Assembly (NCBI GenBank): GCA_035946655.1
Contig: DASYZD010000063.1
Location: 1 to 37,110 of the forward strand
Origin: Stellaceae bacterium
GTDB lineage: Bacteria > Pseudomonadota > Alphaproteobacteria > ATCC43930 > CGMCC-115725
Direction: 5' to 3'
DNA: 37,110 nucleotides
Of the stretch, positions 4,535 through 16,135 are shown piece by piece. Under the pieces are notes generated by a model. The model was not told the origin of the DNA. It did no database searches and saw only the letters and a program-made list of their open reading frames with translations. The number at the start of each line of letters is the position of its first letter. Positions within the stretch are counted from its first letter, which is position 1. A program made the translations under genes and the position numbers.

Positions 4535-4736
4535 GCCTTCTCTCCCCAAATCCCGAGCCGCCTTGGGCGAGACGCTATAGCAAAGCGCGCCGACCCCTCC
4601 AGCGGATTGCTGCCGGCCGTTGATCGCGTCGCATTTTTCCGGCATGACCGGGGAAGGGAGTGACCTGGGGCCCCTATTTGGCGCATTCTCACTCCGATGC
4701 TGCCGCGCCCCGGAAACCAACTCTGGCACTGAGATT

Positions 4737-5807
4737 GTGCCCCACACGACCTCTCAGGATGCTGGCGTCGACACCGATGAAGCCGAGAGCGGCCTCAACC
4801 GGCTGATCAAGCAGATCACCGGCACATGGCCGCCGCGCGGCGCCTTTGGCGGGGTACAGCTGCCGATTGGCTATTTCGCCAATGTCATCGACATCGGCGG
4901 CGTGGGATTGGCGATTTGCACCGATGGTGTCGGCTCCAAGGTCGTTATCGCCGAGCTGATGGACCGTTACGATACGATCGGGATCGATTGCATCGCGATG
5001 AATGTCAACGACTTGATCTGCGTGGGAGCCCAGCCGGTTTCCCTCGTTGATTACATCGCGGTCGAGCGGGCGAACGCGCATATGCTCGAAGCGATTGCGA
5101 TCGGGCTGGCCGATGGCGCCAAAGCGGCCGGCATCTCGATCTCCGGCGGCGAGATCGCGCAGCTCGAAGATATCGTCCACGGCTTTGACCTGGCCGGTAC
5201 GGCGGTCGGAACGGTACCCCTCGATAAAATTCTGACCGGGCGTCATCTGGAACCCGGCGATCGGATCATCGGCATCGAAAGCAGCGGCATTCACAGCAAT
5301 GGGCTCACCCTCGCGCGGAAGGCGTTCTTCAAGCGTACCGACCCGCTTGCCTTGGGTCATCCGGTTCCCGGGACCGATGCCACGCTCGGCGACGAGTTGC
5401 TCCGCCCGACCCTGATCTACGTTCGCGAGATCATGGAAATTCTGCGGCAGGTGCCAAGCGTCAAGGCTCTGACGCATATCACGAGTGACGGGCTCCTCAA
5501 TTTAAGTCGGGTTGACAACCCGCACCTCGGGTTTTTGATCGACGAGATGCCGCCGGCACCGGGAATATTTAACATGATTCAACAATACGGCGACGTCAGC
5601 ACCGCTGAAATGTTTGAAGTGTATAATATGGGGGTGGGGTTTTGCGTCTCGGTCAGCGAAACCGATGTCGCTGCGGTGCTCTCCATACTCGCTCAGCACC
5701 ATCGGAAAGCGTCGGTGATCGGCACGGTTATCGAGGACCCGACAAAAGGGGTTTATTTGCCCCGGCAAGGCCTTACCGGGCATAAAAAGCGCTTTCGCCA
5801 GGACTGA
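4737..5807 (+). CDS. PurM-like AIR synthase-related protein (start uncertain: GTG 4737, ATG 4644 or 4620)
   Basis: SQDAGVDTDEAE resembles the PurM N-terminus (KDAGVDIDAG). CTDGVGSKVVIA and IGIDCIAMNVNDLICVGAQP match PurM-superfamily motifs. Codons 4620..4736 have poor third-position GC, so the short start is preferred. Confidence 0.75.
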   Translation: MPHTTSQDAGVDTDEAESGLNRLIKQITGTWPPRGAFGGVQLPIGYFANVIDIGGVGLAICTDGVGSKVVIAELMDRYDTIGIDCIAMNVNDLICVGAQPVSLVDYIAVERANAHMLEAIAIGLADGAKAAGISISGGEIAQLEDIVHGFDLAGTAVGTVPLDKILTGRHLEPGDRIIGIESSGIHSNGLTLARKAFFKRTDPLALGHPVPGTDATLGDELLRPTLIYVREIMEILRQVPSVKALTHITSDGLLNLSRVDNPHLGFLIDEMPPAPGIFNMIQQYGDVSTAEMFEVYNMGVGFCVSVSETDVAAVLSILAQHHRKASVIGTVIEDPTKGVYLPRQGLTGHKKRFRQD

Positions 5808-5828
5808 AAGCAGCGACCGGAGGCCTCG

Positions 5829-6470
5829 CTATCTGGCCGCGGCTTGGGGCGCTCCGCGGACGAACGCCCAAAAGCTGTTGTCCATCGCAACCGATTGGCT
5901 CATCAGGTAGGGGAAGTGGCCGTAGACGAGCGACAGCTCCCGGTCGGCCTGCGCGGCGCTCGCCCCGGTGTCGGTGTAGCGATAGAGGGCGGCGACGAGG
6001 CCGGTGCGGTCCGCCCCCGATTTGCAATGGATCAAGAGCGGCTTTGGCGCCTTGCGCACGATGCCGAGAATCTCCGAGATCTGCTGATTGGTAACAAAAC
6101 GCTTGGCCGATAATGGGTAGTCGAAATGCACGAGGCCCAGCGCGCCCGAGGCCGTGATCTCGTCGTCGTACCACGCCTGCCCCTTATGCGCGCCGCGCAG
6201 GTTGAGCACCGATTTGATCCCGTATTCCCCGACGGCCGCCTTGATCTCGTTTCCGCTCAATTGCGCCGAACGGTAAAGGACCCCCGCGCGAACCGCGTGA
6301 AGATTGCCCTCGTATTGGAGAATCCCCCAGTACCCCCCGATCGAGGCAGCCACGAGCCCGACACAAACCCCGGCGACCTTGAGGCACCGCAACAGCCCCG
6401 CGACCGTCCTCGATCGAGGCCGTCGCCGGCCGGTTTCTGCATCGAGCCCGCTAAGCGGTTGCGTGGTCAT
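5829..6470 (-). CDS. Membrane-anchored dual-specificity / tyrosine phosphatase-like protein
   Basis: CX5R P-loop HCKSGADRTG. One N-terminal hydrophobic helix (VAGVCVGLVAASIGGYWGIL). 213 aa. Confidence 0.8.
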   Translation of the reverse strand: MTTQPLSGLDAETGRRRPRSRTVAGLLRCLKVAGVCVGLVAASIGGYWGILQYEGNLHAVRAGVLYRSAQLSGNEIKAAVGEYGIKSVLNLRGAHKGQAWYDDEITASGALGLVHFDYPLSAKRFVTNQQISEILGIVRKAPKPLLIHCKSGADRTGLVAALYRYTDTGASAAQADRELSLVYGHFPYLMSQSVAMDNSFWAFVRGAPQAAAR

Positions 6471-6631
6471 GCCGCAATCCCGTCTCGGTTCGCCGGTCCG
6501 TCGTGCGAAGGTTCCCGCCCAGGCAAGTTCGCGCGCGAGCGATAATCAGGTATAACCGCCGCCGAGCGGATTGCCAACGACGGCGCGATGCGCGCCCGGC
6601 CAGGGGGTCCGATTTCGGGGGAGGCAGGTAG

Positions 6632-7417
6632 ATGACTGTGAGGATTGCAGCGCTCTACCGCTACCCGGTCAAGGGAATGAGCGCCGAGCCTCTAGAGCGG
6701 GTGGCGCTCGCGCCCGGTGAATGCCTGCCGCAGGACCGCCGCTTCGCGATCGCGCTGGCTGCGACCCGCTTTGATCCAACACGCCCGGAATGGTTGCCGA
6801 AGACGAAATTTGTCATGCTGATGCGCGACGAAAAGCTGGCGCAGCTGAGTACCGGCTTCGACGCCTCAAGCGGCGCGCTGACCATCGAGCGTAAGGGCAG
6901 CGTCGCCCTGCGGGCGCGCCTCAGCGAGCCCGAGGGGTGCCGGGTCGTCAGCGAGTTTCTGGCGGAGTTTCTCGGGCCGGGCATCGAGGGTCCGCTGCGA
7001 ATCGTCGAGGCCCCCGGCCACGCCTTTGCCGATGCGCGCAGGAAACCCAACGCGACGAGCGACAAATACGTCTCGCTGATCAACCTTGCCAGCATCGCCG
7101 CATTGGAAGCGGTCGTCGGGGCGCCGGTCGATCCGTTGCGCTTCCGCGCCAATGCCTATCTCGAGGGGGAGCCGGCGTGGAGCGAACTCGGCTGGATCGG
7201 TTCCGAGATCATGTTGGACGGCGCGCGCCTCAGGGTGATTGCCGCGATCACGCGGTGCGCCGCCACCGCGGTCAACCCGGCGACGGCCGAGCGCGACCTC
7301 GATATCGTCGGCGCCCTGCAGCGCGGCTTCGGCCACAATTTGATGGGTATTTATGCCGAGGTGATCGCGGGCGGCGAGATCGCGATCGGCGACCAATTGG
7401 CGCTGCGCCAGCCCTAG
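6632..7417 (+). CDS. MOSC domain-containing protein (N-terminal beta-barrel plus MOSC)
   Basis: LYRYPVKGMS N-terminal motif. A conserved Cys context ITRCAATAVNP lies near the C-terminus. GGAGG-like RBS upstream. Confidence 0.85.
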   Translation: MTVRIAALYRYPVKGMSAEPLERVALAPGECLPQDRRFAIALAATRFDPTRPEWLPKTKFVMLMRDEKLAQLSTGFDASSGALTIERKGSVALRARLSEPEGCRVVSEFLAEFLGPGIEGPLRIVEAPGHAFADARRKPNATSDKYVSLINLASIAALEAVVGAPVDPLRFRANAYLEGEPAWSELGWIGSEIMLDGARLRVIAAITRCAATAVNPATAERDLDIVGALQRGFGHNLMGIYAEVIAGGEIAIGDQLALRQP

Positions 7418-7508
7418 CCTGCTGGCTCTTGGTCCCCTGCCCGGACCAACTCGCCCGAATGCCGAACGCGGCCAAGATGACCGCAGCCGGCAGGCGGATT
7501 CCACGCAC

Positions 7509-7548
7509 AAAAAGGCTACGCTCGGCGGCGCTTAGGCGCCGCCGAGCG
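7509..7548 (-). terminator. Rho-independent terminator downstream of the distal flp gene
   Basis: Perfect 13-bp stem CGCTCGGCGGCGC / GCGCCGCCGAGCG with a 4-nt loop. On the minus strand it is followed by TAGCCTTTTT. Confidence 0.7.
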
Positions 7549-7578
7549 TAGTGCGAGACCGACCGAAGCCGCCAATCG

Positions 7579-7740
7579 TTAGAGCTTGTTGGCGACGTTG
7601 GTGAAGGTGTTGATGAGCGCGGTTCCGACCAGCGACATGGCGCTGATCGCGGCAACCGCGATCAAGGCGGCGATCAAACCGTATTCGATCGCGGTCGCCC
7701 CGTCCTCGTTTTTCGCTAACTTGACCAAAGTGGCAAACAT
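7579..7740 (-). CDS. flp: Flp family type IVb pilin (53 aa; absent from ORF track because <60 aa)
   Basis: Hand translation gives MFATLVKLAKNEDGATAIEYGLIAALIAVAAISAMSLVGTALINTFTNVANKL followed by TAA. The Flp motif G/ATAIEYGLI is present. The tracked plus-strand ORF 7586..7792 is its antisense shadow. Confidence 0.9.
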   Translation of the reverse strand: MFATLVKLAKNEDGATAIEYGLIAALIAVAAISAMSLVGTALINTFTNVANKL

Positions 7741-7835
7741 TCAGGTTCTCCTCGAAGCGCTGCTTTTTGGCTCCCCCGCTCAGCGCCGCTGAAGCGCCGC
7801 CGAGCGGGGTGCGAAACCGACCAAATCGCCGATCG

Positions 7836-7997
7836 TCAAAGCTTGTTGGCGACGTTGGTGAAGGTGTTGATGAGCGCGGTTCCGACCAGCGACATGGCGC
7901 TGATCGCGGCAACCGCAATCAAGGCGGCGATCAAACCATATTCGATCGCGGTCGCCCCGTCTTCGCTCTTCCATAAGCTTTTCAGTGTGGCAAACAT
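7836..7997 (-). CDS. flp: Flp family type IVb pilin (53 aa), tandem paralogue
   Basis: This is the C-terminal 53 aa of tracked ORF 7836..8303: MFATLKSLWKSEDGATAIEYGLIAALIAVAAISAMSLVGTALINTFTNVANKL. An AGGAGG RBS (cctcct on the plus strand) lies just upstream of the ATG at 7997. Confidence 0.9.
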   Translation of the reverse strand: MFATLKSLWKSEDGATAIEYGLIAALIAVAAISAMSLVGTALINTFTNVANKL

Positions 7998-8218
7998 CCC
8001 AGTCCTCCTGTGGCCGCTGACCCCCCCACCATGCACGCCAAAGCTTGCCAAAGCCTTAAAGCCAGCGGGGCGAACGATGCCATAGAGCAAAAGATCGCAC
8101 AACACTTTAGCCAATTTTGGCAGGTAATCTCTTGCCGCAGCGGTTTTATTGAAGTCGCACGGTGATCGCAGTTCGCGAACGCGCGGGGCGCGCCAGCCGC
8201 ATGCCGGGATTCGGCCGC

Positions 8219-8248
8219 GAAATCCGCCGACCCTGTGGGTCGGCGGAT
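8219..8248 (-). terminator. Putative terminator hairpin downstream of the SelW-like gene
   Basis: Perfect 12-bp stem ATCCGCCGACCC / GGGTCGGCGGAT with loop TGT. Only a short TTTC tract follows on the minus strand. Confidence 0.5.
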
Positions 8249-8309: not shown

Positions 8310-8543
8310 TCAGGGTGCCCCGGTTTGACCGGCGCCTAACGAATCGATTTCCTCGTCGGTGGGAAACCGCCCAGTTTGCTTCTTCGAGAACATGAGCCGG
8401 CCATCGACGGTGATCTCGAACGCGCCGCCCACCCCGGGTACCAACTCGACTTCGGCGCCATAACCCTCAATCAATCTCGCCCTCGCACGGAGGGCCCGCG
8501 GCTCATAGTTTCAAGGCTTGCACCACTCGATCCTGACCTTCAT
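8310..8543 (-). CDS. selW: SelW-like / Rdx-family selenoprotein (77 aa) with in-frame UGA (Sec) at codon 11
   Basis: Base-by-base hand translation gives MKVRIEWCKP-U-NYEPRALRARARLIEGYGAEVELVPGVGGAFEITVDGRLMFSKKQTGRFPTDEEIDSLGAGQTGAP. The C-x-x-U redox motif has its TGA at 8511..8513. The SelW-like block GxFE[IV]xVxGxLxxSKKxxGxFP is present. A strong RBS GGAGGGTGGAG sits directly upstream of the ATG at 8543. Third-position GC stays high across the TGA. Confidence 0.85.
8479..8495 (-). promoter_or_regulatory. Candidate bacterial SECIS hairpin
   Basis: The mRNA folds as GCCCUC-CGUGC-GAGGGC, a 6-bp GC stem with a 5-nt loop containing GU. It starts 15 nt after the UGA. Confidence 0.55.
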
Positions 8544-8789
8544 CTCCACCCTCCATCGCGGCTGGCTCTTCAGCAGCCACCAACGGCCAGCTTATCATGA
8601 CAATTCGCGGCGTGTCAGGCGTTCCATGCGCGCCCAGGGATCGCATCGGCCTCTCGCGGTAAATCATTTGGTAAAACGCGTCATATAGCGTTTAGCGGTG
8701 ATGGCGAGCGGCTTGACCTGCGATCGGATCGGGCGTAGCGGGGCCGGCAGACGGGAGTGAGCGGGTTCGGCGATTGGCGGAGCAGGGCG

Positions 8790-9669: not shown

Positions 9670-10941
9670 ATGAAGGCCGCGATCCGGCTGCCGGCGCTGT
9701 TCGTCCAGGCCGGCGCGGCGACGAGCGGGAAGAGCGAACTCGGCGCGGCCCTGAGCTGGCGGCCCCATAGCGGCAAGTTTCGGCTGCTTGCCGGCATTTT
9801 TCTCGCTCTGTTCGCCGCTTATGAAATCGCCTACCTCGCGATTGCCGTCGGCGGCGGCTGGCCCCACGGGCCCGGCGATTCCTTCGCCCTATGGAGCTGG
9901 GGACGTTTCCTGGAGGACCATCCGGCGACCACGATTTATGACGCCGCGACCCTTCGTGCGGCACAGCTGGCGCTCGGGATGGATCCAGGGGCGTCCTACC
10001 CGTTCGCCTATCCGCCGAGTTATCTGCCGCTGCTGTCTCTACTCGGGCTATTGCCTGGACCGGTGGCGTTCGGCGCATTGATCGCGGCCAGCCTGCCATT
10101 TTATCTGTGGGCAACGGTCGGCCGAGAGTGGCGCTCGCCCGCGCTCGTCGCCGCGCTCGTGGCGCCGACCACGGCGATTGCCGTCGTGTCCGGGCAGAGC
10201 GGGTTGCTCACCGCCGCCCTGTTGGCGGGCGGCCTGCGCCTTGCCGCCGGCTCCCGGGTCGCCGCGGGGATTTTCTTCGGCCTGTTGACCTACAAGCCAC
10301 AGCTCGGGCTCCTGGTTCCGGTCGCGCTCCTTGCCGCCGGGCTGTGGCGCACGCTGGCCGCCGCGGTAGTGACCGCGATCCTTCTCGTCCTCCTGACGAG
10401 CCTATTGTTCGGTGGCGCGATCTGGCCGAGCTGGGTCGCCGCGCTTCCCGCATTCTCGCGTCAGTTTGCCGCCGAGAGCAGCCAGATCGTTCACTTCATG
10501 CCGACGATCCTCATCGCCCTGTTGCGGCTCGGCGCCCCCCCTGCGGCAGCGCAGTTGGCCCAAGGGGCGGCAACGTTCGGGGCAGTGGCGATCGTCTGGA
10601 CGCTCTTCCGCTCCGGCCCAACCCAGCTGGCCGGCGCCGGGCTCCTTGTTGCGGCCCTGCTCGCGACGCCCTACGCCTTTGTCTACGACATGCCGGGTGT
10701 CGCCACCGCGGTGATCTGGCTGGTCGCCGAGCGCCACCGCGCCGGTGATGCCTTGGGCACAGGCGAAGTGTTGGTCACGATTCTCGCGATGATGGCGCCG
10801 ATCACGCTGGTCACCGGGACTTCCAGGTTTCCGCTCGCTTCAATCGCGCTCGTCCTCCTCCTTGGTGCGATCGTGCGGCGCTCGCGCCACCTGTGTGCGC
10901 AAGCGGCGTCGGCTCTGCCTCCACCTGCATCCAGCGGGTGA
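9670..10941 (+). CDS. Polytopic membrane glycosyltransferase, GT87/DUF2029-like
   Basis: More than 10 predicted hydrophobic helices. The LLTYKPQLGLLVP motif is typical of DUF2029 mannosyltransferase-like proteins. The start was set at the ATG at 9670; the upstream part of the tracked ORF overlaps the GT2 gene. Confidence 0.7.
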   Translation: MKAAIRLPALFVQAGAATSGKSELGAALSWRPHSGKFRLLAGIFLALFAAYEIAYLAIAVGGGWPHGPGDSFALWSWGRFLEDHPATTIYDAATLRAAQLALGMDPGASYPFAYPPSYLPLLSLLGLLPGPVAFGALIAASLPFYLWATVGREWRSPALVAALVAPTTAIAVVSGQSGLLTAALLAGGLRLAAGSRVAAGIFFGLLTYKPQLGLLVPVALLAAGLWRTLAAAVVTAILLVLLTSLLFGGAIWPSWVAALPAFSRQFAAESSQIVHFMPTILIALLRLGAPPAAAQLAQGAATFGAVAIVWTLFRSGPTQLAGAGLLVAALLATPYAFVYDMPGVATAVIWLVAERHRAGDALGTGEVLVTILAMMAPITLVTGTSRFPLASIALVLLLGAIVRRSRHLCAQAASALPPPASSG

Positions 10942-11038
10942 CCGTGCCCATTCTGGGGTTGCCTTCGGCCCCGCCCAGCGCGAGGTTTGGCCGCCGCCCG
11001 CAAGCGTTATCGGGCGGGCGCAGGCGGAGAATACGGAT

Positions 11039-11566
11039 ATGGCCGACAGCACCGGCGTGGCGACCCAGTGGCAGGACCAGCTCTATGACCTCTTGCGCCG
11101 CAACAAAATCACCCAGTTCGCCTATGTGCCCGATGCCGGGCACCGCATCCTGATCGACCGCTCGCTCGCCGATCCCGGCGCGCGATCGGTGGCGCTGACG
11201 ACTGAAGAAGAAGGGGTGGCGCTGCTTGCCGGCGCCGACCTAGGCGGCGCGCGCGGTGTCCTCCTCATGCAGTCGAGCGGCACCGGCAACTGCATCAACA
11301 TGCTTTCCCTGATCAAGGGCGGACATTTTCCGCTGCTAACGCTTGTCAGCATGCGCGGCGATTTCGGCGAGGGGAACCCGTGGCAGTACCCGATGGGTCA
11401 GGCGGTCGAGCCGGTGCTGCGAGCGATGGGGGTGATCTGCGTGCGCATCGAGGAACCGCAAGAGGTGGTCCCGACGGTCGAGGCGGCATGCACGATGGTG
11501 TTTCAGGGCGGTAACGCGGTCGCCGTGCTGCTGACCCAGAAGCTCCTGGGAGCAAAAGCATTTTGA
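11039..11566 (+). CDS. ThDP-dependent decarboxylase, alpha (pyrimidine-binding) subunit; sulfopyruvate/phosphonopyruvate decarboxylase-like
   Basis: MADSTGVATQWQDQLYDLLRRNKITQFAYVPDAG... and TTEEEGVALLAGA, LMQSSGTGN are ComD-like. GGAG lies 12 nt upstream of the ATG at 11039. Confidence 0.75.
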   Translation: MADSTGVATQWQDQLYDLLRRNKITQFAYVPDAGHRILIDRSLADPGARSVALTTEEEGVALLAGADLGGARGVLLMQSSGTGNCINMLSLIKGGHFPLLTLVSMRGDFGEGNPWQYPMGQAVEPVLRAMGVICVRIEEPQEVVPTVEAACTMVFQGGNAVAVLLTQKLLGAKAF

Positions 11567-11577
11567 GGAGCGGTATA

Positions 11578-12204
11578 ATGGCGAACTGTCCGCAAAGGGT
11601 CGACATGGCGGCGGCGATCGCCGCCGGTTTCGTCCTCGACCGATGCGAGGCGGTGCCGGCACTGATTGGCCGGCACGAGGATTTTTTGTTTGTAACGGGG
11701 CTCGCCGGGACGGCGCGCGACATTGCCGCGCTGACCCATGACGGGGTGCACATCTACACGATGGCCGGGGCAATGGGCGGCGCCGCGATGATCGGGCTCG
11801 GCCTCGCCCTCGCGCGGCCCGACAAGCGGGTGCTGGTCGCCACGGGCGACGGCGAACTCCTGATGAATGTTGGGGCGCTGGCGACGATCGCGGTCCTAAA
11901 CCCGCCGAACCTCGCGATTGTCTGTGTCGATAACGGCCATTACGGCGAGACCGGCTATCAGAAGAGCCACACCAGCCTTGGCGTCGATCTCGAGAAAATC
12001 GCTTCCGGTTGCGGCATCAAGCGCACCCGCACGGTGGCGAATGAGGCCGATATCGCCGAGGGCGCGCGTCTGTTGCGCGAGGGTAACGGCACCGCCTTTG
12101 TCGTGCTCAGGGTCAAGCCTGACGATCCGCCGCCCTACAAGCGCAACCTCGATCCGGCCGCCTGCCGCATCCGCTTCCGCGGCGCACTGCTTGGCGCGGA
12201 GTGA
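11578..12204 (+). CDS. ThDP-dependent decarboxylase, beta (diphosphate-binding) subunit
   Basis: ThDP motif GDGELLMNVGALATIAVLNPPNLAIVCVDNGHYGETG. A GAGGAG RBS sits 8 nt upstream of the ATG at 11578. The gene follows the alpha subunit stop closely. Confidence 0.78.
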   Translation: MANCPQRVDMAAAIAAGFVLDRCEAVPALIGRHEDFLFVTGLAGTARDIAALTHDGVHIYTMAGAMGGAAMIGLGLALARPDKRVLVATGDGELLMNVGALATIAVLNPPNLAIVCVDNGHYGETGYQKSHTSLGVDLEKIASGCGIKRTRTVANEADIAEGARLLREGNGTAFVVLRVKPDDPPPYKRNLDPAACRIRFRGALLGAE

Positions 12205-12308
12205 GCGACCCAATGCCGGTTAGCAACAACTCGCACGCCGGCGTTTGACCGAACCCGGCGCGAAGGGGCGAGCGACCTCTGAGGTCCGCGGGGACGGCGA
12301 GCAACCCT

Positions 12309-12350
12309 GAAAACAACAAAATCCGGCGCGGGTCGGCCCGCGCCGGATTT
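12309..12350. terminator. Terminator hairpin between convergent genes (best fit for minus-strand flp)
   Basis: Perfect 13-bp stem AATCCGGCGCGGG / CCCGCGCCGGATT with loop TCGG. The minus strand continues TTTTGTTGTTTTC. Confidence 0.75.
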
Positions 12351-12374
12351 GGCTTCAGTAGTCGGTGCGGCCGA

Positions 12375-12563
12375 TTACAGATCGGTCGCGACGGTGGTGA
12401 AGATGCCGATCAGGCTGGTGCCGACCGCCTGCATTGCGACGATCGCGGCAACCGCGATCAGCGCAGCAATCAAGCCATATTCGATCGCGGTAGCTCCGGA
12501 TTCATCGCGCACCACGCGGGTGAGAACCGAATTCTGCGCGAAACGCGCGTGCAACAAGCCCAT
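12375..12563 (-). CDS. flp: Flp family type IVb pilin (62 aa)
   Basis: MGLLHARFAQNSVLTRVVRDESGATAIEYGLIAALIAVAAIVAMQAVGTSLIGIFTTVATDL. GAGGAG RBS upstream. Confidence 0.9.
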   Translation of the reverse strand: MGLLHARFAQNSVLTRVVRDESGATAIEYGLIAALIAVAAIVAMQAVGTSLIGIFTTVATDL

Positions 12564-12612
12564 GACAAGTCTCCTCGGTTGATTGGGTGCCTCCTAGAAA
12601 ACCCGATGGCGG

Positions 12613-12628
12613 TTAAGGTGCGATTAAC
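12613..12628. promoter_or_regulatory. CtrA-box-like site TTAA-N7-TTAAC upstream of flp
   Basis: TTAAGGTGCGATTAAC lies 50-65 nt upstream of the flp ATG at 12563, in a locally AT-richer stretch. Confidence 0.5.
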
Positions 12629-12987
12629 AGCGCCAGTTGTCGATCAAAATTGTTCGGTTAAAAGCCGAACAAATTCGGCCAATAGCGGCCCATATGGAAG
12701 CATACGCAATTGGGTTCAGCCGCCCTACCCCGAAGCGTTAGGTTGTTTACCAATCCGTCGAGAATACCCCGCAAATTCCTCCGCCGGGAGTGTTTCGCTG
12801 AGCATCTCCCGCCTGTTGGGACGGCAGCCGTATCGCGGAGAAAGAGCGATCCGGCACCTGCCGGCGCCCGCCGGTCATTGCTCGCCCGCCTGACATCGCC
12901 CGCCCGCCGGTGGCGGCCGGCGAATCGATCCGGCGCGGCGCTCGACGGGCGGTACCACCGAGCGCGGCGATGGTGGTGGCCGCCGAC

Positions 12988-14259
12988 ATGGCGCCGCTGC
13001 GTCGATCGGCTCTTGTTCACGAGAGCGCGGGCGCGATATCAACAGCGCTAATGCCAATCCTCTTCCTCATCGTTTTTATCGACCTGGTCGGGTTCGGGCT
13101 GGTCATCCCGCTATTGCCGTATTACGCGCAGCGGTTCGCCGCTTCGCCCCTGCAAATGACCCTCTTGTTCGCGATCTACTCGTTGATGTCGATGATGACG
13201 GCGCCGCTATGGGGACGGCTGAGCGACCGGGTCGGCCGGCGGCCGGTGCTGATGGCGAGCATGGCGGCAGCCGGGTTGGCCTATCTCGGGCTGGCTTTCG
13301 CCACCGGGCTGTGGATGGTGTTCGCCGCGCGCGCGTTCGCCGGCGCCTGTGCCGGCAATATCGCCGCCGCTCAGGCCTATATCGCCGATGTGACGGCACC
13401 CGAACAGCGCGCCAAGGGAATGGGCATGATCGGCGCGGCATTCGGCCTGGGCTTCATCATCGGACCGGTGGTGGGCGGCATCCTCGCCGGCGGCGACGTG
13501 GCGACGGCCGACCTCGAAACCCCGGGGCTCATCGCCGCGGTGCTGTCATTCTCCGCCTTCCTCGGGGTGATCGCGCTGTTGCCGGAGAGCCTCGCCGCCG
13601 GGGGCGTGCGCGCCTCGCGCGGCCGGATCACGGCGGCGCGCGGCGCGCTTGGCCAGCCGGTGCTGGCGCGGCTCCTCGTCGTGTTCTTTCTGGTCATTCT
13701 CGCCTTTTCCGGCATGGAGACCACCTTCGCCTGGTGGGCGATCGGACAATTCGGCTGGGGCCCGCGGCCGATCGGCTTTGTGTTCTTTTATGTCGGCCTT
13801 TTGTCGGCGCTGATGCAGGGCGTCTTGATCGGCAAGCTGACCGCGCGCTTCGGCGAGGAGCGGCTGTTGCTGGGCGGGCTGGGGGCAATCGCGCTCGGGC
13901 TGCTGGCGCTGCCGTTCGCGCATGACCTGACCCGTCTTGTCATCGCGCTGAGTGCGCTGGCGCTCGGGATGGGGGCGATGCAGCCATCGCTCAACAGCCT
14001 GATCTCGCGCCGCGCCGGAGTGGGGGAACAGGGCGAAGTCATGGGCGTCGCGCAATCGGTCGGCAGCCTGTCGCGGGTGCTGGGGCCGATCATCGCGGGA
14101 TCCTTGTTCGCCGCCTTCGGTCGCAACAGCCCATATTTGTGGGGGGCTGTGCTGGTCGGCGGCGCCCTCCTGGTCGGGTGGCGCCTGCCGCGCCACCAGG
14201 CGCCGGCGGCAACCACGATGGTGCCGCGCCCGCAACCTCCGTTGGGGCCAGCCGAATGA
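12988..14259 (+). CDS. MFS transporter (TetA/DHA1-like); start uncertain (12970, 12988 or 13051)
   Basis: About 12 hydrophobic segments. LFLIVFIDLVGFGLVIPLLPYY and GRLSDRVGRRPVL (MFS loop 2-3 motif). Confidence 0.85.
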   Translation: MAPLRRSALVHESAGAISTALMPILFLIVFIDLVGFGLVIPLLPYYAQRFAASPLQMTLLFAIYSLMSMMTAPLWGRLSDRVGRRPVLMASMAAAGLAYLGLAFATGLWMVFAARAFAGACAGNIAAAQAYIADVTAPEQRAKGMGMIGAAFGLGFIIGPVVGGILAGGDVATADLETPGLIAAVLSFSAFLGVIALLPESLAAGGVRASRGRITAARGALGQPVLARLLVVFFLVILAFSGMETTFAWWAIGQFGWGPRPIGFVFFYVGLLSALMQGVLIGKLTARFGEERLLLGGLGAIALGLLALPFAHDLTRLVIALSALALGMGAMQPSLNSLISRRAGVGEQGEVMGVAQSVGSLSRVLGPIIAGSLFAAFGRNSPYLWGAVLVGGALLVGWRLPRHQAPAATTMVPRPQPPLGPAE

Positions 14260-14269
14260 GCCCGCCCCA

Positions 14270-16135
14270 ATGAGCCCGCACGGCCCCCGCATGGTCGGGC
14301 GCTCGTCGATCGGCGGCCTGCCGGAGCCCGACGAGCGGCTCGGCGAGGGACTGCGCGCGCTGAAAGGCCTTGGCCCCTATTTGTGGCCGAAGAATGCGCT
14401 CGAACTGCGGGTTCGCATCGTCTTGGCGCTGGCCCTCTTGATCGGCGGCAAGCTCGTCAACATCACGATCCCGCTCTTCTATAGGGCCGCCGTCGATGCG
14501 CTTGCCCACCCGGCGGCGGCGCACAACGCCATGGTCGGCGTGCCGATCGCGGTGATCCTCGGCTACGGCGCCGCCCGGGTCACGTCGCAGAGCTTCAACG
14601 AACTGCGCAACGCGGTCTTCGCCAAGGTCGGCCAGCGCGCGGTGCGCCAGGTGGCGTTGTCGGCGTTTCGACACATCCATTCATTGTCCCTGCGCTTTCA
14701 TCTGGAGCGGCGCACCGGCGGGCTGGCCCGCGCCGTCGAACGCGGCACCGCGGGGATCGAGTTCCTCTTGTCGTTCATGCTGTTCAACATCGTGCCGACG
14801 GTGTTCGAGATCGTCGTCGTCTGCGCGATTTTGTGGCGCCTCTACAGCTGGGCCTTCGCCGCCGTCACGCTGGGGACAATCGTTACTTACATTACCTTCA
14901 CCTTTGTCCTGACCGACTGGCGCGTCCGCTTTCGCCGCGAGATGAACGCGCGCAACAGCGAAGCCAATACGAAGGCGGTCGACAGCCTCCTCAACTATGA
15001 GACCGTCAAATATTTCGCCAACGAGACCCACGAAGCGGAACGCTACGACCGTGCGCTCCATGCCTATGAGCGGGCCGCAGTCAGGAGCGAGACGACGCTG
15101 GCAATGCTCAACGTCGGTCAGGGCGTGATCATCGCCGTTGGCCTCATCGGCGTCATGATCCTGGCGGCACAGGGGGTCGCGGCGGGGCGGATGACGGTCG
15201 GCGATTTCGTGCTGGTCAACGCCTACCTCCTCCAGCTCTACCAGCCGCTCAACTTCCTCGGCATGGTCTACCGCAACATCAAGCAGTCCTTGACCGACCT
15301 AGAGCAGATGATGGCGCTCCTCAAGGTCGCCCCGGAGATCGAGGACCGGCCGGGCGCGCCCGCGCTTGCCGTCCGCCAAGGCGGGGTCGCCTTTCGCCAC
15401 GTCGATTTCCGCTACGACCCACGGCGGACGATCCTGGGCGATGTCGATTTCGTGGTGCCGCCCGGCGCCACGCTCGCCATCGTCGGGCCGAGCGGCGCCG
15501 GAAAATCGACGATCGCGCGGCTCCTCTTCCGCTTTTACGACGTCGACGACGGCGCGATCCTAATCGACGGCCAGGACATCCGGGATATCACCCAGGACAG
15601 CCTCAGGCGTGCGATCGGCGTGGTGCCGCAGGACACGGTCCTCTTCAACGACACGATCTTCTACAACATCGCCTATGGCCGGCCCGGCGCCAGCCGCGCC
15701 GAGATCGAGGCCGCGGCGCGGCGCGCCCACATCCACGATTTCATCGCGTCGCTCCCCGACGGCTATGAGACGATGGTCGGCGAGCGCGGCCTCAAATTGT
15801 CGGGCGGCGAGAAGCAGCGCGTTGCCATCGCCCGGGTGGTCCTGAAGGCGCCGAAGATCCTCATATTTGACGAAGCCACCTCGGCCCTCGATACCAAGAC
15901 CGAGCGTGAGATCCAGGCGAGCCTCGCGGAAGTTGCCGCCGACCACACGACGCTGGTCATCGCCCATCGCCTCTCGACCGTGGTCGACGCCGACCAGATC
16001 CTCGTCCTCGATGGCGGCCAGATCGTTGAGCGCGGCCATCATCGCGAGCTCTTGGGGAAGGGCGGCGTCTATGCCCAGATGTGGGCGCGCCAGCAGGAAG
16101 CCGCCGCCCGCGAAGCGGCGCTGGCGGCAAAATGA
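14270..16135 (+). CDS. Atm1/ABCB7/HMT1-type ABC exporter (fused permease-ATPase)
   Basis: 621 aa. N-terminal LWPYLWP-type segment with 6 TM helices. Walker A GPSGAGKST, signature LSGGEKQRVAIAR, Walker B ILIFDEATSALD. Confidence 0.88.
   Translation: MSPHGPRMVGRSSIGGLPEPDERLGEGLRALKGLGPYLWPKNALELRVRIVLALALLIGGKLVNITIPLFYRAAVDALAHPAAAHNAMVGVPIAVILGYGAARVTSQSFNELRNAVFAKVGQRAVRQVALSAFRHIHSLSLRFHLERRTGGLARAVERGTAGIEFLLSFMLFNIVPTVFEIVVVCAILWRLYSWAFAAVTLGTIVTYITFTFVLTDWRVRFRREMNARNSEANTKAVDSLLNYETVKYFANETHEAERYDRALHAYERAAVRSETTLAMLNVGQGVIIAVGLIGVMILAAQGVAAGRMTVGDFVLVNAYLLQLYQPLNFLGMVYRNIKQSLTDLEQMMALLKVAPEIEDRPGAPALAVRQGGVAFRHVDFRYDPRRTILGDVDFVVPPGATLAIVGPSGAGKSTIARLLFRFYDVDDGAILIDGQDIRDITQDSLRRAIGVVPQDTVLFNDTIFYNIAYGRPGASRAEIEAAARRAHIHDFIASLPDGYETMVGERGLKLSGGEKQRVAIARVVLKAPKILIFDEATSALDTKTEREIQASLAEVAADHTTLVIAHRLSTVVDADQILVLDGGQIVERGHHRELLGKGGVYAQMWARQQEAAAREAALAAK

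Follow-up and report, generated by a model that had tools for sequence, protein, structure and literature searches.

The 37,110-nucleotide (nt) stretch of DNA analysed here (the window; contig DASYZD010000063.1 of a Stellaceae bacterium) carries on its minus strand, at 8310..8543, a SelW-like gene interrupted by an in-frame TGA. With a probability of about 0.9, this is an intact, functional gene for a 77-residue selenoprotein of the Rdx family in which UGA at codon 11 is recoded as selenocysteine (Sec). The reading frame, the protein family, the conservation of the UGA, the RNA-level constraint and covariation in a hairpin that follows it, and the complete Sec machinery in relatives are all established by the present analysis. 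Positions are window coordinates unless a locus label (L and a number) is given.

Read on the minus strand from 8543 to 8310, the locus translates to MKVRIEWCKP, a TGA, NYEPRALRARARLIEGYGAEVELVPGVGGAFEITVDGRLMFSKKQTGRFPTDEEIDSLGAGQTGAP and a final stop. The ATG (8543-8541) stands 6 nt downstream of a Shine-Dalgarno sequence, GGAGG, read from the sequence at 8550..8554. Cys8 is encoded by TGC at 8520..8522, the in-frame TGA occupies 8511..8513, and 66 further codons lead to the terminal TGA at 8312-8310. With Sec as the eleventh of 77 codons, the product would be MKVRIEWCKPU followed by NYEPRALRARARLIEGYGAEVELVPGVGGAFEITVDGRLMFSKKQTGRFPTDEEIDSLGAGQTGAP. The first-pass annotation, made from the letters of the sequence, had described this frame, a ribosome-binding site (RBS) before the ATG, the SelW/Rdx hallmark and a GC stem-loop 15 nt past the UGA. 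The frame proved exact to the base, the hallmark motif AFEITVDGRLMFSKKQTGRFP is found in the frame that follows the TGA, and the stem-loop, GCCCUC/CGUGC/GAGGGC, lies at 8495-8479, its first stem base separated from the UGA by exactly 15 nt. The same annotation had claimed a high third-position GC content after the TGA; the value is only moderately high, at 0.73 versus about 0.8-0.9 in neighbouring genes. The statement that standard callers of open reading frames (ORFs) miss the gene agrees with the mechanical ORF list, which has at this locus only a 54-residue C-terminal piece (8310..8474, minus strand) and an antisense ORF (8376..8600, plus strand).

Family searches, for which Cys was put in place of the TGA, indicate that the 77-residue product is a full-length Rdx/SelW domain with the TGA at the U of CxxU. 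The Pfam Rdx profile (PF10262) matches residues 2-66 at profile positions 1-68 of 74, with 66 bits against a cut-off of 22.6, a significant match over the full domain such as the first-pass annotation had anticipated. Because this match starts at residue 2 and at profile position 1, the ten codons upstream of the TGA are part of the Rdx domain; the 54-residue tail by itself, which is without the redox motif, matches the profile at positions 32-68 only. The product also scores 55.4 bits with NCBIfam TIGR02174, 'CXXU_selWTH' (cut-off 34.2), and 88.6 bits with NF041051, 'SelT/SelW/SelH family (seleno)protein' (SelTWH_Campy), just above the cut-off of 88. Relatives of solved structure include MIEN1 (2LJK, E = 1.6e-10), Atu0228 (2FA8), several 'SelW-related' bacterial proteins and mouse SelW (2NPB, E = 1.6e-4), and similarity to these structures implies a thioredoxin-like fold. 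The segment C8-K-P-(TGA) aligns with the CxxC or CxxU motif of the solved relatives. The motif C8-K-P-U11 stands at the N-terminal place, just past the first beta-strand, where the family has its redox motif, and both Cys8 and TGA11 are present in 81 of 81 aligned sequences.

Conservation of the UGA was assessed in genomes and in metagenomes. A search of one genome per GTDB species with the peptide encoded after the TGA gave 80 loci with 52-89% identity, from Stellaceae, Rhodospirillaceae, Elioraea, Desertibaculum, Defluviicoccus and further alphaproteobacterial metagenome-assembled genomes (MAGs). In each of the 80, which represent distinct GTDB species, the homologous codon is TGA, with M-K-x-x-I-E-Y/W-C-x-x before it in the same frame and N-Y-E-P-R-A-L-R-A after it. 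A 32-nt degenerate pattern running from the TGA through the hairpin apex matched at least 120 metagenome contigs, 119 of them with enough upstream sequence. Among these listed matches, 112 of which are distinct sequences, the codon at -3 encodes Cys and the upstream frame is open in all 119, and in 118 a start codon lies exactly 10 codons before the TGA. Orthologues that end at the TGA, which would have spoken against the selenoprotein first proposed, were found in neither set. The Cys8 codon is TGC in 79 of the aligned sequences and TGT in two. The closest relatives of the window copy, which are 86% identical to it, keep the intact frame, the RBS and the stem and loop of the hairpin.

Protein databases give a different picture of the same genes. 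The best 120 database proteins are nearly all C-terminal fragments of 44-55 residues that begin past the TGA. Two entries, P0001 and P0005, seem to be full-length and have Trp in place of Sec; for P0001 (L084:666-884) the DNA reads TGA at this codon, and the W is evidently an artefact of JGI gene calling with code 4 (TGA = Trp) on a short contig. Two further homologues, P0010 and P0066, are Cys forms (CxxC) in which TGC aligns with the TGA codon, consistent with the first-pass placement of the TGA at the Sec or second Cys of the motif. The Cys-form genes lie at L085:841-1074 and L086:1605-1868. The former has, where the selenocysteine insertion sequence (SECIS) would lie, an 8-bp hairpin whose loop is the 3-nt CUA, possibly a relic of a Sec-to-Cys conversion; the latter has no such hairpin.

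The hairpin downstream of the UGA (8479..8495, minus strand) comprises a 6-bp stem, GCCCUC/GAGGGC, and the loop CGUGC at 8489-8485. It was compared across species in 81 sequences (77 distinct), aligned without gaps over 60 nt beginning at the TGA. All 81 have the same loop bases, C25, G26, U27 and G28, and in the apical helix (columns 19-24 with 30-35, spanning +19 to +35) 87.7% of cells are paired. The strongest evidence comes from the four codons across the apex, which are nearly frozen: Leu18 is always CTC (81/81), Arg19 always CGT (81/81) and Ala20 always GCG (75/75), and Arg21 is either AGG (59 sequences) or AGA (7). At the other conserved Leu, Arg, Ala, Gly, Val, Pro and Ser columns, 3-6 different codons are in use, and the rest of the gene seldom encodes Arg by CGT or AGG (at column 60, 9 and 1 of 75, respectively). 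This near absence of synonymous variation at the apex therefore reflects selection on the RNA rather than on the protein. The stem also covaries. Pair 21-33 is CG in 58 sequences, UA in 9, GC in 2 and UG in 2, with 6 G-G mismatches; A33, from the synonymous change AGG>AGA, occurs only with U21, from the synonymous change GCC>GCU (9/9), and C33 occurs only with G21 (2/2). The window copy has a perfect upper stem (6/6) and the consensus loop. A lower SECIS stem that encloses the apical hairpin (columns 6-14 with 38-46; 8468..8508, minus strand) is tentative, only 6 of its 9 pairs forming in the window; 62% of its cells are paired versus 34-43% in slid controls, and its pair 9-43 is CG in 22, UA in 19 and UG in 16, with 20 unpaired. 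RNAalifold alone recovered just 4 apex pairs. The position of the hairpin and its small, G-containing apical loop match the description of bacterial SECIS elements (PMC1088965). As judged from these sequence features, the hairpin is a putative bacterial-SECIS-like element outside the curated Rfam families; what upholds the first-pass proposal of a candidate SECIS is the synonymous freeze at the apex and the compensatory change across orthologues, the folding energy alone not being significant.

A complete Sec machinery was found in relatives that carry the same gene. On the metagenome contig L091 (at about 630-680), a selD homologue with 44% identity to E. coli SelD (E = 2.6e-46) stands head-to-head with a TGA orthologue. 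With L091 SelD as the query, the SelD of a Stellaceae MAG (P0126, contig JBOHMJ010001613.1) and that of L207, a 1.8-Mb MAG contig, were retrieved. L207 carries in a row the TGA orthologue (9902-9687), which starts MKIVIHYCGQ-(TGA)-GYEPRALRA..., selD (10001-11071), tRNA-SeC(tca) (11078-11173), selB (11183-13114) and selA (13111-14484). The SelB of L207 in turn led to two SelB proteins of Stellaceae MAGs, P0252 and P0270, the latter encoded on DATIXQ010000043.1 (L215). Within 7 kb, L215 holds selA (4607-6004; TIGR00474, 571 bits), selB (6001-7938; TIGR00475, 422 bits), tRNA-SeC(tca) (10124-10219), selD (10159-11277; TIGR00476, 367 bits) and a TGA orthologue (11324-11542) that starts MKVVIQYCGA-(TGA)-GYEPKALRA... 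and has the same CUCCGUGCG apex. The arrangement recurs in L213 and L214, and another Stellaceae MAG (L217) has selA-selB. The lineage thus has a complete Sec machinery that is in places physically linked to the SelW-like gene. In the subclade with the sequence YCG[AQ]-U-GYEP... (L091, L207 and, at 10159-11542, L213-L215), about 50-100 nt separate the SelW-like gene from selD, the two being head-to-head, and in L213 and L215 the tRNA-SeC call (10124-10219, plus strand) overlaps the 3' end of the called selD on the opposite strand.

Not every SelD-like gene is informative in this respect. An ORF with AIRS/AIRS_C domains at 4620-5807 of the window was considered as selD and rejected, as NCBIfam assigns it to PurM (332.6 bits) with only 23 bits for selD. 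SelD matches on L208 and L211 were likewise rejected as evidence of Sec decoding, being unlinked to selA or selB. In a related MAG (L211:9191-17191), selD occurs with XdhC, a three-subunit molybdenum hydroxylase and a YqeC-domain protein, the selenium-cofactor trait; because of this context, SelD alone is no sign of Sec use in the group. Peng et al. (2016; PMC5029168) defined the Sec trait by SelD, SelA and SelB, and their Table S2 lists Elioraea tepidiphila DSM 17972 as Sec-utilising with 0 known selenoproteins. This strain has a TGA orthologue with the conserved hairpin (L064:9998-10000, NZ_KB899910.1), so the survey seems to have missed it. We infer, on good grounds, that the source organism of the window has the full Sec trait.

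Several results weigh against a functional selenoprotein gene at this locus, and they concern the machinery, the hairpin and the sampling. With E. coli queries (tblastn), the window gave no homologue of selA, selB or selD, nor did ARAGORN detect a tRNA-Sec in it; the same searches of the 20-kb flanks of the 80 genome orthologues found none of the four. The lower stem is weak in the window copy, with only 6/9 pairs; at stem pair 22-32, C stands opposite A in 11/77 distinct sequences, and pair 19-35 forms in just about half of the sequences. Folded alone, the hairpin is not more stable than shuffled sequence (z = -0.10). Because of this value, the single-sequence fold was not used as evidence, and the significance of the hairpin rests on the comparison across species only. 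Rfam gave no match at gathering thresholds in the window and no SECIS family at E <= 10 in 8400-8600. Finally, the retrieval patterns contain NYEPRALR or the hairpin sequence, which biases the sample to conserved sequences, though not to TGA in the genome scan. The lack of machinery within the available 37 kb would fit an intact gene orphaned in an organism that recently lost the Sec machinery and makes no full-length product, and the Sec trait is frequently lost in bacteria (PMC1794560). Such an orphan is nevertheless very unlikely, given that the window copy retains its perfect upper stem, consensus loop, open frame and RBS, that the 86%-identical relatives keep these features, and that Stellaceae MAGs encode SelA, SelB, SelD and tRNA-Sec.

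The remaining explanations dispense with Sec altogether. The UGA might be read through as another residue, by a near-cognate Trp or Cys tRNA or under a reassigned code, as the Trp in the JGI calls P0001 and P0005 would suggest. This is highly improbable. The W of P0001 comes from code 4, and TGA is the commonest stop codon of the window, ending 15 of its 28 genes, the SelW-like gene included; moreover, in a known selenoprotein family the codon occupies the place of the catalytic Cys or Sec, selection at the RNA level acts on a hairpin downstream of it, and relatives have the TGA gene beside selD, tRNA-Sec, selB and selA. It has even less to recommend it that translation would stop at the UGA after a 10-residue peptide and that an independent Rdx fragment of 44-55 residues would start from an internal TTG or ATG (8474). 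About 115 such fragments are in the databases, some named 'Rdx family protein', and the ORF list gives one of 54 residues at 8310..8474. Yet the Rdx match already begins before the TGA, at residue 2, and a fragment on its own would be without the redox motif; the column of the internal 'start' is an ordinary Leu codon (CTG 36, CTC 16, TTG 14) with no conserved start; and the 10 upstream codons, including the invariant Cys and Ile, are conserved in frame. A dead gene, in which the Cys codon (TGC or TGT) of a CxxC Rdx gene mutated to TGA, would require a single substitution from TGC, and Cys-form homologues (P0010, P0066) do exist. Its probability is negligible in view of the TGA shared by 80/80 species-level orthologues and all 119 listed metagenome matches, the conservation of both flanks in frame, and synonymous variation elsewhere in the gene that is typical of selected coding sequence. 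Because the TGA is conserved across orthologues and is otherwise a normal stop in the window, the pseudogene, the two-ORF arrangement and a reassigned code are effectively excluded.

Recoding of UGA11 as Sec would proceed as follows. Ribosomes would initiate at the ATG behind GGAGG and reach the UGA at codon 11, where the in-ORF SECIS hairpin, possibly on a longer lower stem, may recruit SelB-GTP-Sec-tRNA(Sec), so that Sec is inserted in place of termination. Bacterial SECIS elements act by binding SelB (PMC5029168), and SelB is presumed to bind this hairpin and to deliver Sec in the source organism. Translation would then end at the ordinary terminal UGA, which has no hairpin. In the product, Cys8-x-x-Sec11 would stand at the start of the thioredoxin-like Rdx domain, and its selenol and thiol may form a reversible selenenylsulfide. 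The CXXU motif has been taken to suggest a redox function of SelW-like proteins (PMC1088965), and the window protein is most likely a small thiol-dependent oxidoreductase. The head-to-head arrangement of the SelW-like gene and selD in one subclade is a lead on function, not evidence of it. It is conceivable, but unlikely, that the clade handles selenium or delivers it to SelD, that it is the main or only selenoprotein sustaining the Sec machinery in aerobic soil Alphaproteobacteria such as Elioraea tepidiphila, and that the CUC-CGUGC-GAG apex is a distinct, uncatalogued SECIS class matched to the SelB of these organisms.

The main value of the finding lies in correcting annotation. Selenoprotein biology is unchanged by it, as bacterial SelW-like CXXU proteins have been recognised since 2004-2005. 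The useful additions are a systematically mis-annotated clade, a carrier that at least one published survey scored with no known selenoprotein, and an unusually invariant SECIS apex that is absent from Rfam. In public databases the gene is recurrently called as a 44-55-residue 'Rdx family protein' fragment, called as a Trp-containing protein, or missed. The source organism, a Stellaceae-type soil alphaproteobacterium, is a probable user of Sec. The collection assembled here offers about 200 sequences in which an in-ORF RNA signal freezes synonymous sites, and these could seed a covariance model for a SECIS type that Rfam lacks.

The SelW-like gene appears to be monocistronic; it has an RBS of its own and, 64 nt past its stop, a GC-rich hairpin. 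The latter is a perfect 10-bp inverted repeat, CCGCCGACCC-ACA-GGGTCGGCGG, at 8224..8246 (minus strand), between the selenoprotein gene and two Flp pilin genes. Its sequence and fold suggest a possible transcription terminator; a terminator scan found that it fails the T-run rule, since ATTTCG and no T-run comes after it. A simple scan found no sigma-70-like promoter of the gene. The neighbours are SDR, PurM, PTPase-like and MOSC genes, with the two Flp pilins downstream and GT2 and GT87 glycosyltransferases and a two-subunit thiamine pyrophosphate (TPP) decarboxylase upstream. This neighbourhood is common to L001, L004, L002 and L006 at about 65-85% protein identity, which assigns the window to an alphaproteobacterium of the Stellaceae type. 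Gene clustering over the 81 loci revealed no widely conserved neighbour, the best being the TPP-decarboxylase subunit genes in 12 loci.

Some of these neighbours have features of their own. The selenoprotein gene is closely followed by the tandem Flp/Fap pilin genes (7579-7740 and 7836-8012, minus strand; Pfam PF04964, 58-61 bits), with a strong terminator-like hairpin past them at 7551-7516 (minus strand), and Flp pilins also adjoin the orthologue in L001, L004, L007, L011 and L020. At 10862-12204 (plus strand), two neighbouring ORFs are similar to sulfopyruvate/phosphonopyruvate decarboxylase, one to its alpha and one to its beta subunit; they have a Pfam TPP_enzyme_C match and fall below the NCBIfam cut-offs (TIGR03845, 103.8 bits vs 148). 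The pair lies divergently upstream of the SelW-like gene in the window and in 12-17 related loci. The MOSC protein is identical to one on a Logan contig from SRR12347821. The orthologue contigs L004, L005, L021, L036 and L044 are titled 'Rhizobium sp.' or 'Candidatus Sulfotelmatobacter sp.', yet they group with Stellaceae-type loci, in L004 with the whole neighbourhood beyond the orthologue, which suggests mislabelled or mis-binned MAGs behind these titles.

Further selenoprotein genes were also sought. In the window, the only other TGA-interrupted ORFs whose third-position GC is high on both sides were antisense low-complexity artefacts, and 1.33 Mb of loci, searched for in-frame TGA codons followed by a hairpin with a CGUG[CU] loop, yielded no convincing second selenoprotein. 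At L207:8040-9665 (plus strand), two ORFs in the same frame, both with a Pfam UGSC domain (PF24696), are separated by a single TGA (8328-8330) in the context ...AAILGVGL-(TGA)-STCSPTVV...; the pair is probably a second selenoprotein gene. It adjoins the selW-selD-selC-selB-selA island of that contig, with genes for a DsbA-like protein and a pyridine-nucleotide oxidoreductase just upstream. A tblastn search of plasmids returned distant Rdx genes only (Thermomicrobium, Neorhizobium, Sinorhizobium), and a literature search on Stella humosa and selenocysteine found nothing.

SelW-like CXXU proteins, known from the surveys of Kryukov, Zhang and Gladyshev, are an established bacterial selenoprotein family present in many genomes (PMC1088965, PMC1794560); with 48 genes, they outnumbered every other selenoprotein family in the Sargasso Sea data (PMC1088965). 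The window gene shares with its bacterial counterparts a small Rdx/SelW domain, an N-terminal Cys-x-x-Sec, and an in-ORF SECIS after the UGA with a small, G-containing loop. As distinct from the surveyed family, the window clade belongs to soil and freshwater Alphaproteobacteria of the Stellaceae type, and its SECIS apex, CUC-CGUGC-GAG, is nearly invariant. The window protein is just at the equivalog threshold of NF041051 and the L215 orthologue falls below it, with 76 bits; by these scores the clade appears to be a relative of the Campylobacter-type model rather than a core member. Mammalian SelW (2NPB) and MIEN1/C17orf37 (2LJK) have the same Rdx domain, with CxxU or CxxC at the same position as in the window protein, and MIEN1 has Cys where the window protein has Sec. 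Eukaryotic SelW relies on a SECIS in the 3' untranslated region together with SBP2 and eEFSec. Closer to home, the alphaproteobacterial Rdx proteins Atu0228 of Agrobacterium (2FA8), P0010 and P0066 align over the whole domain and have CxxC in place of CxxU. The SECIS of E. coli fdhF, like the window hairpin, lies within the ORF a few nucleotides after the UGA and has G-U in a small apical loop, whereas the stem and loop sequences differ. Counted from the U of the UGA, the loop G-U is at +23/+24 in fdhF and at +26/+27 in the window hairpin.

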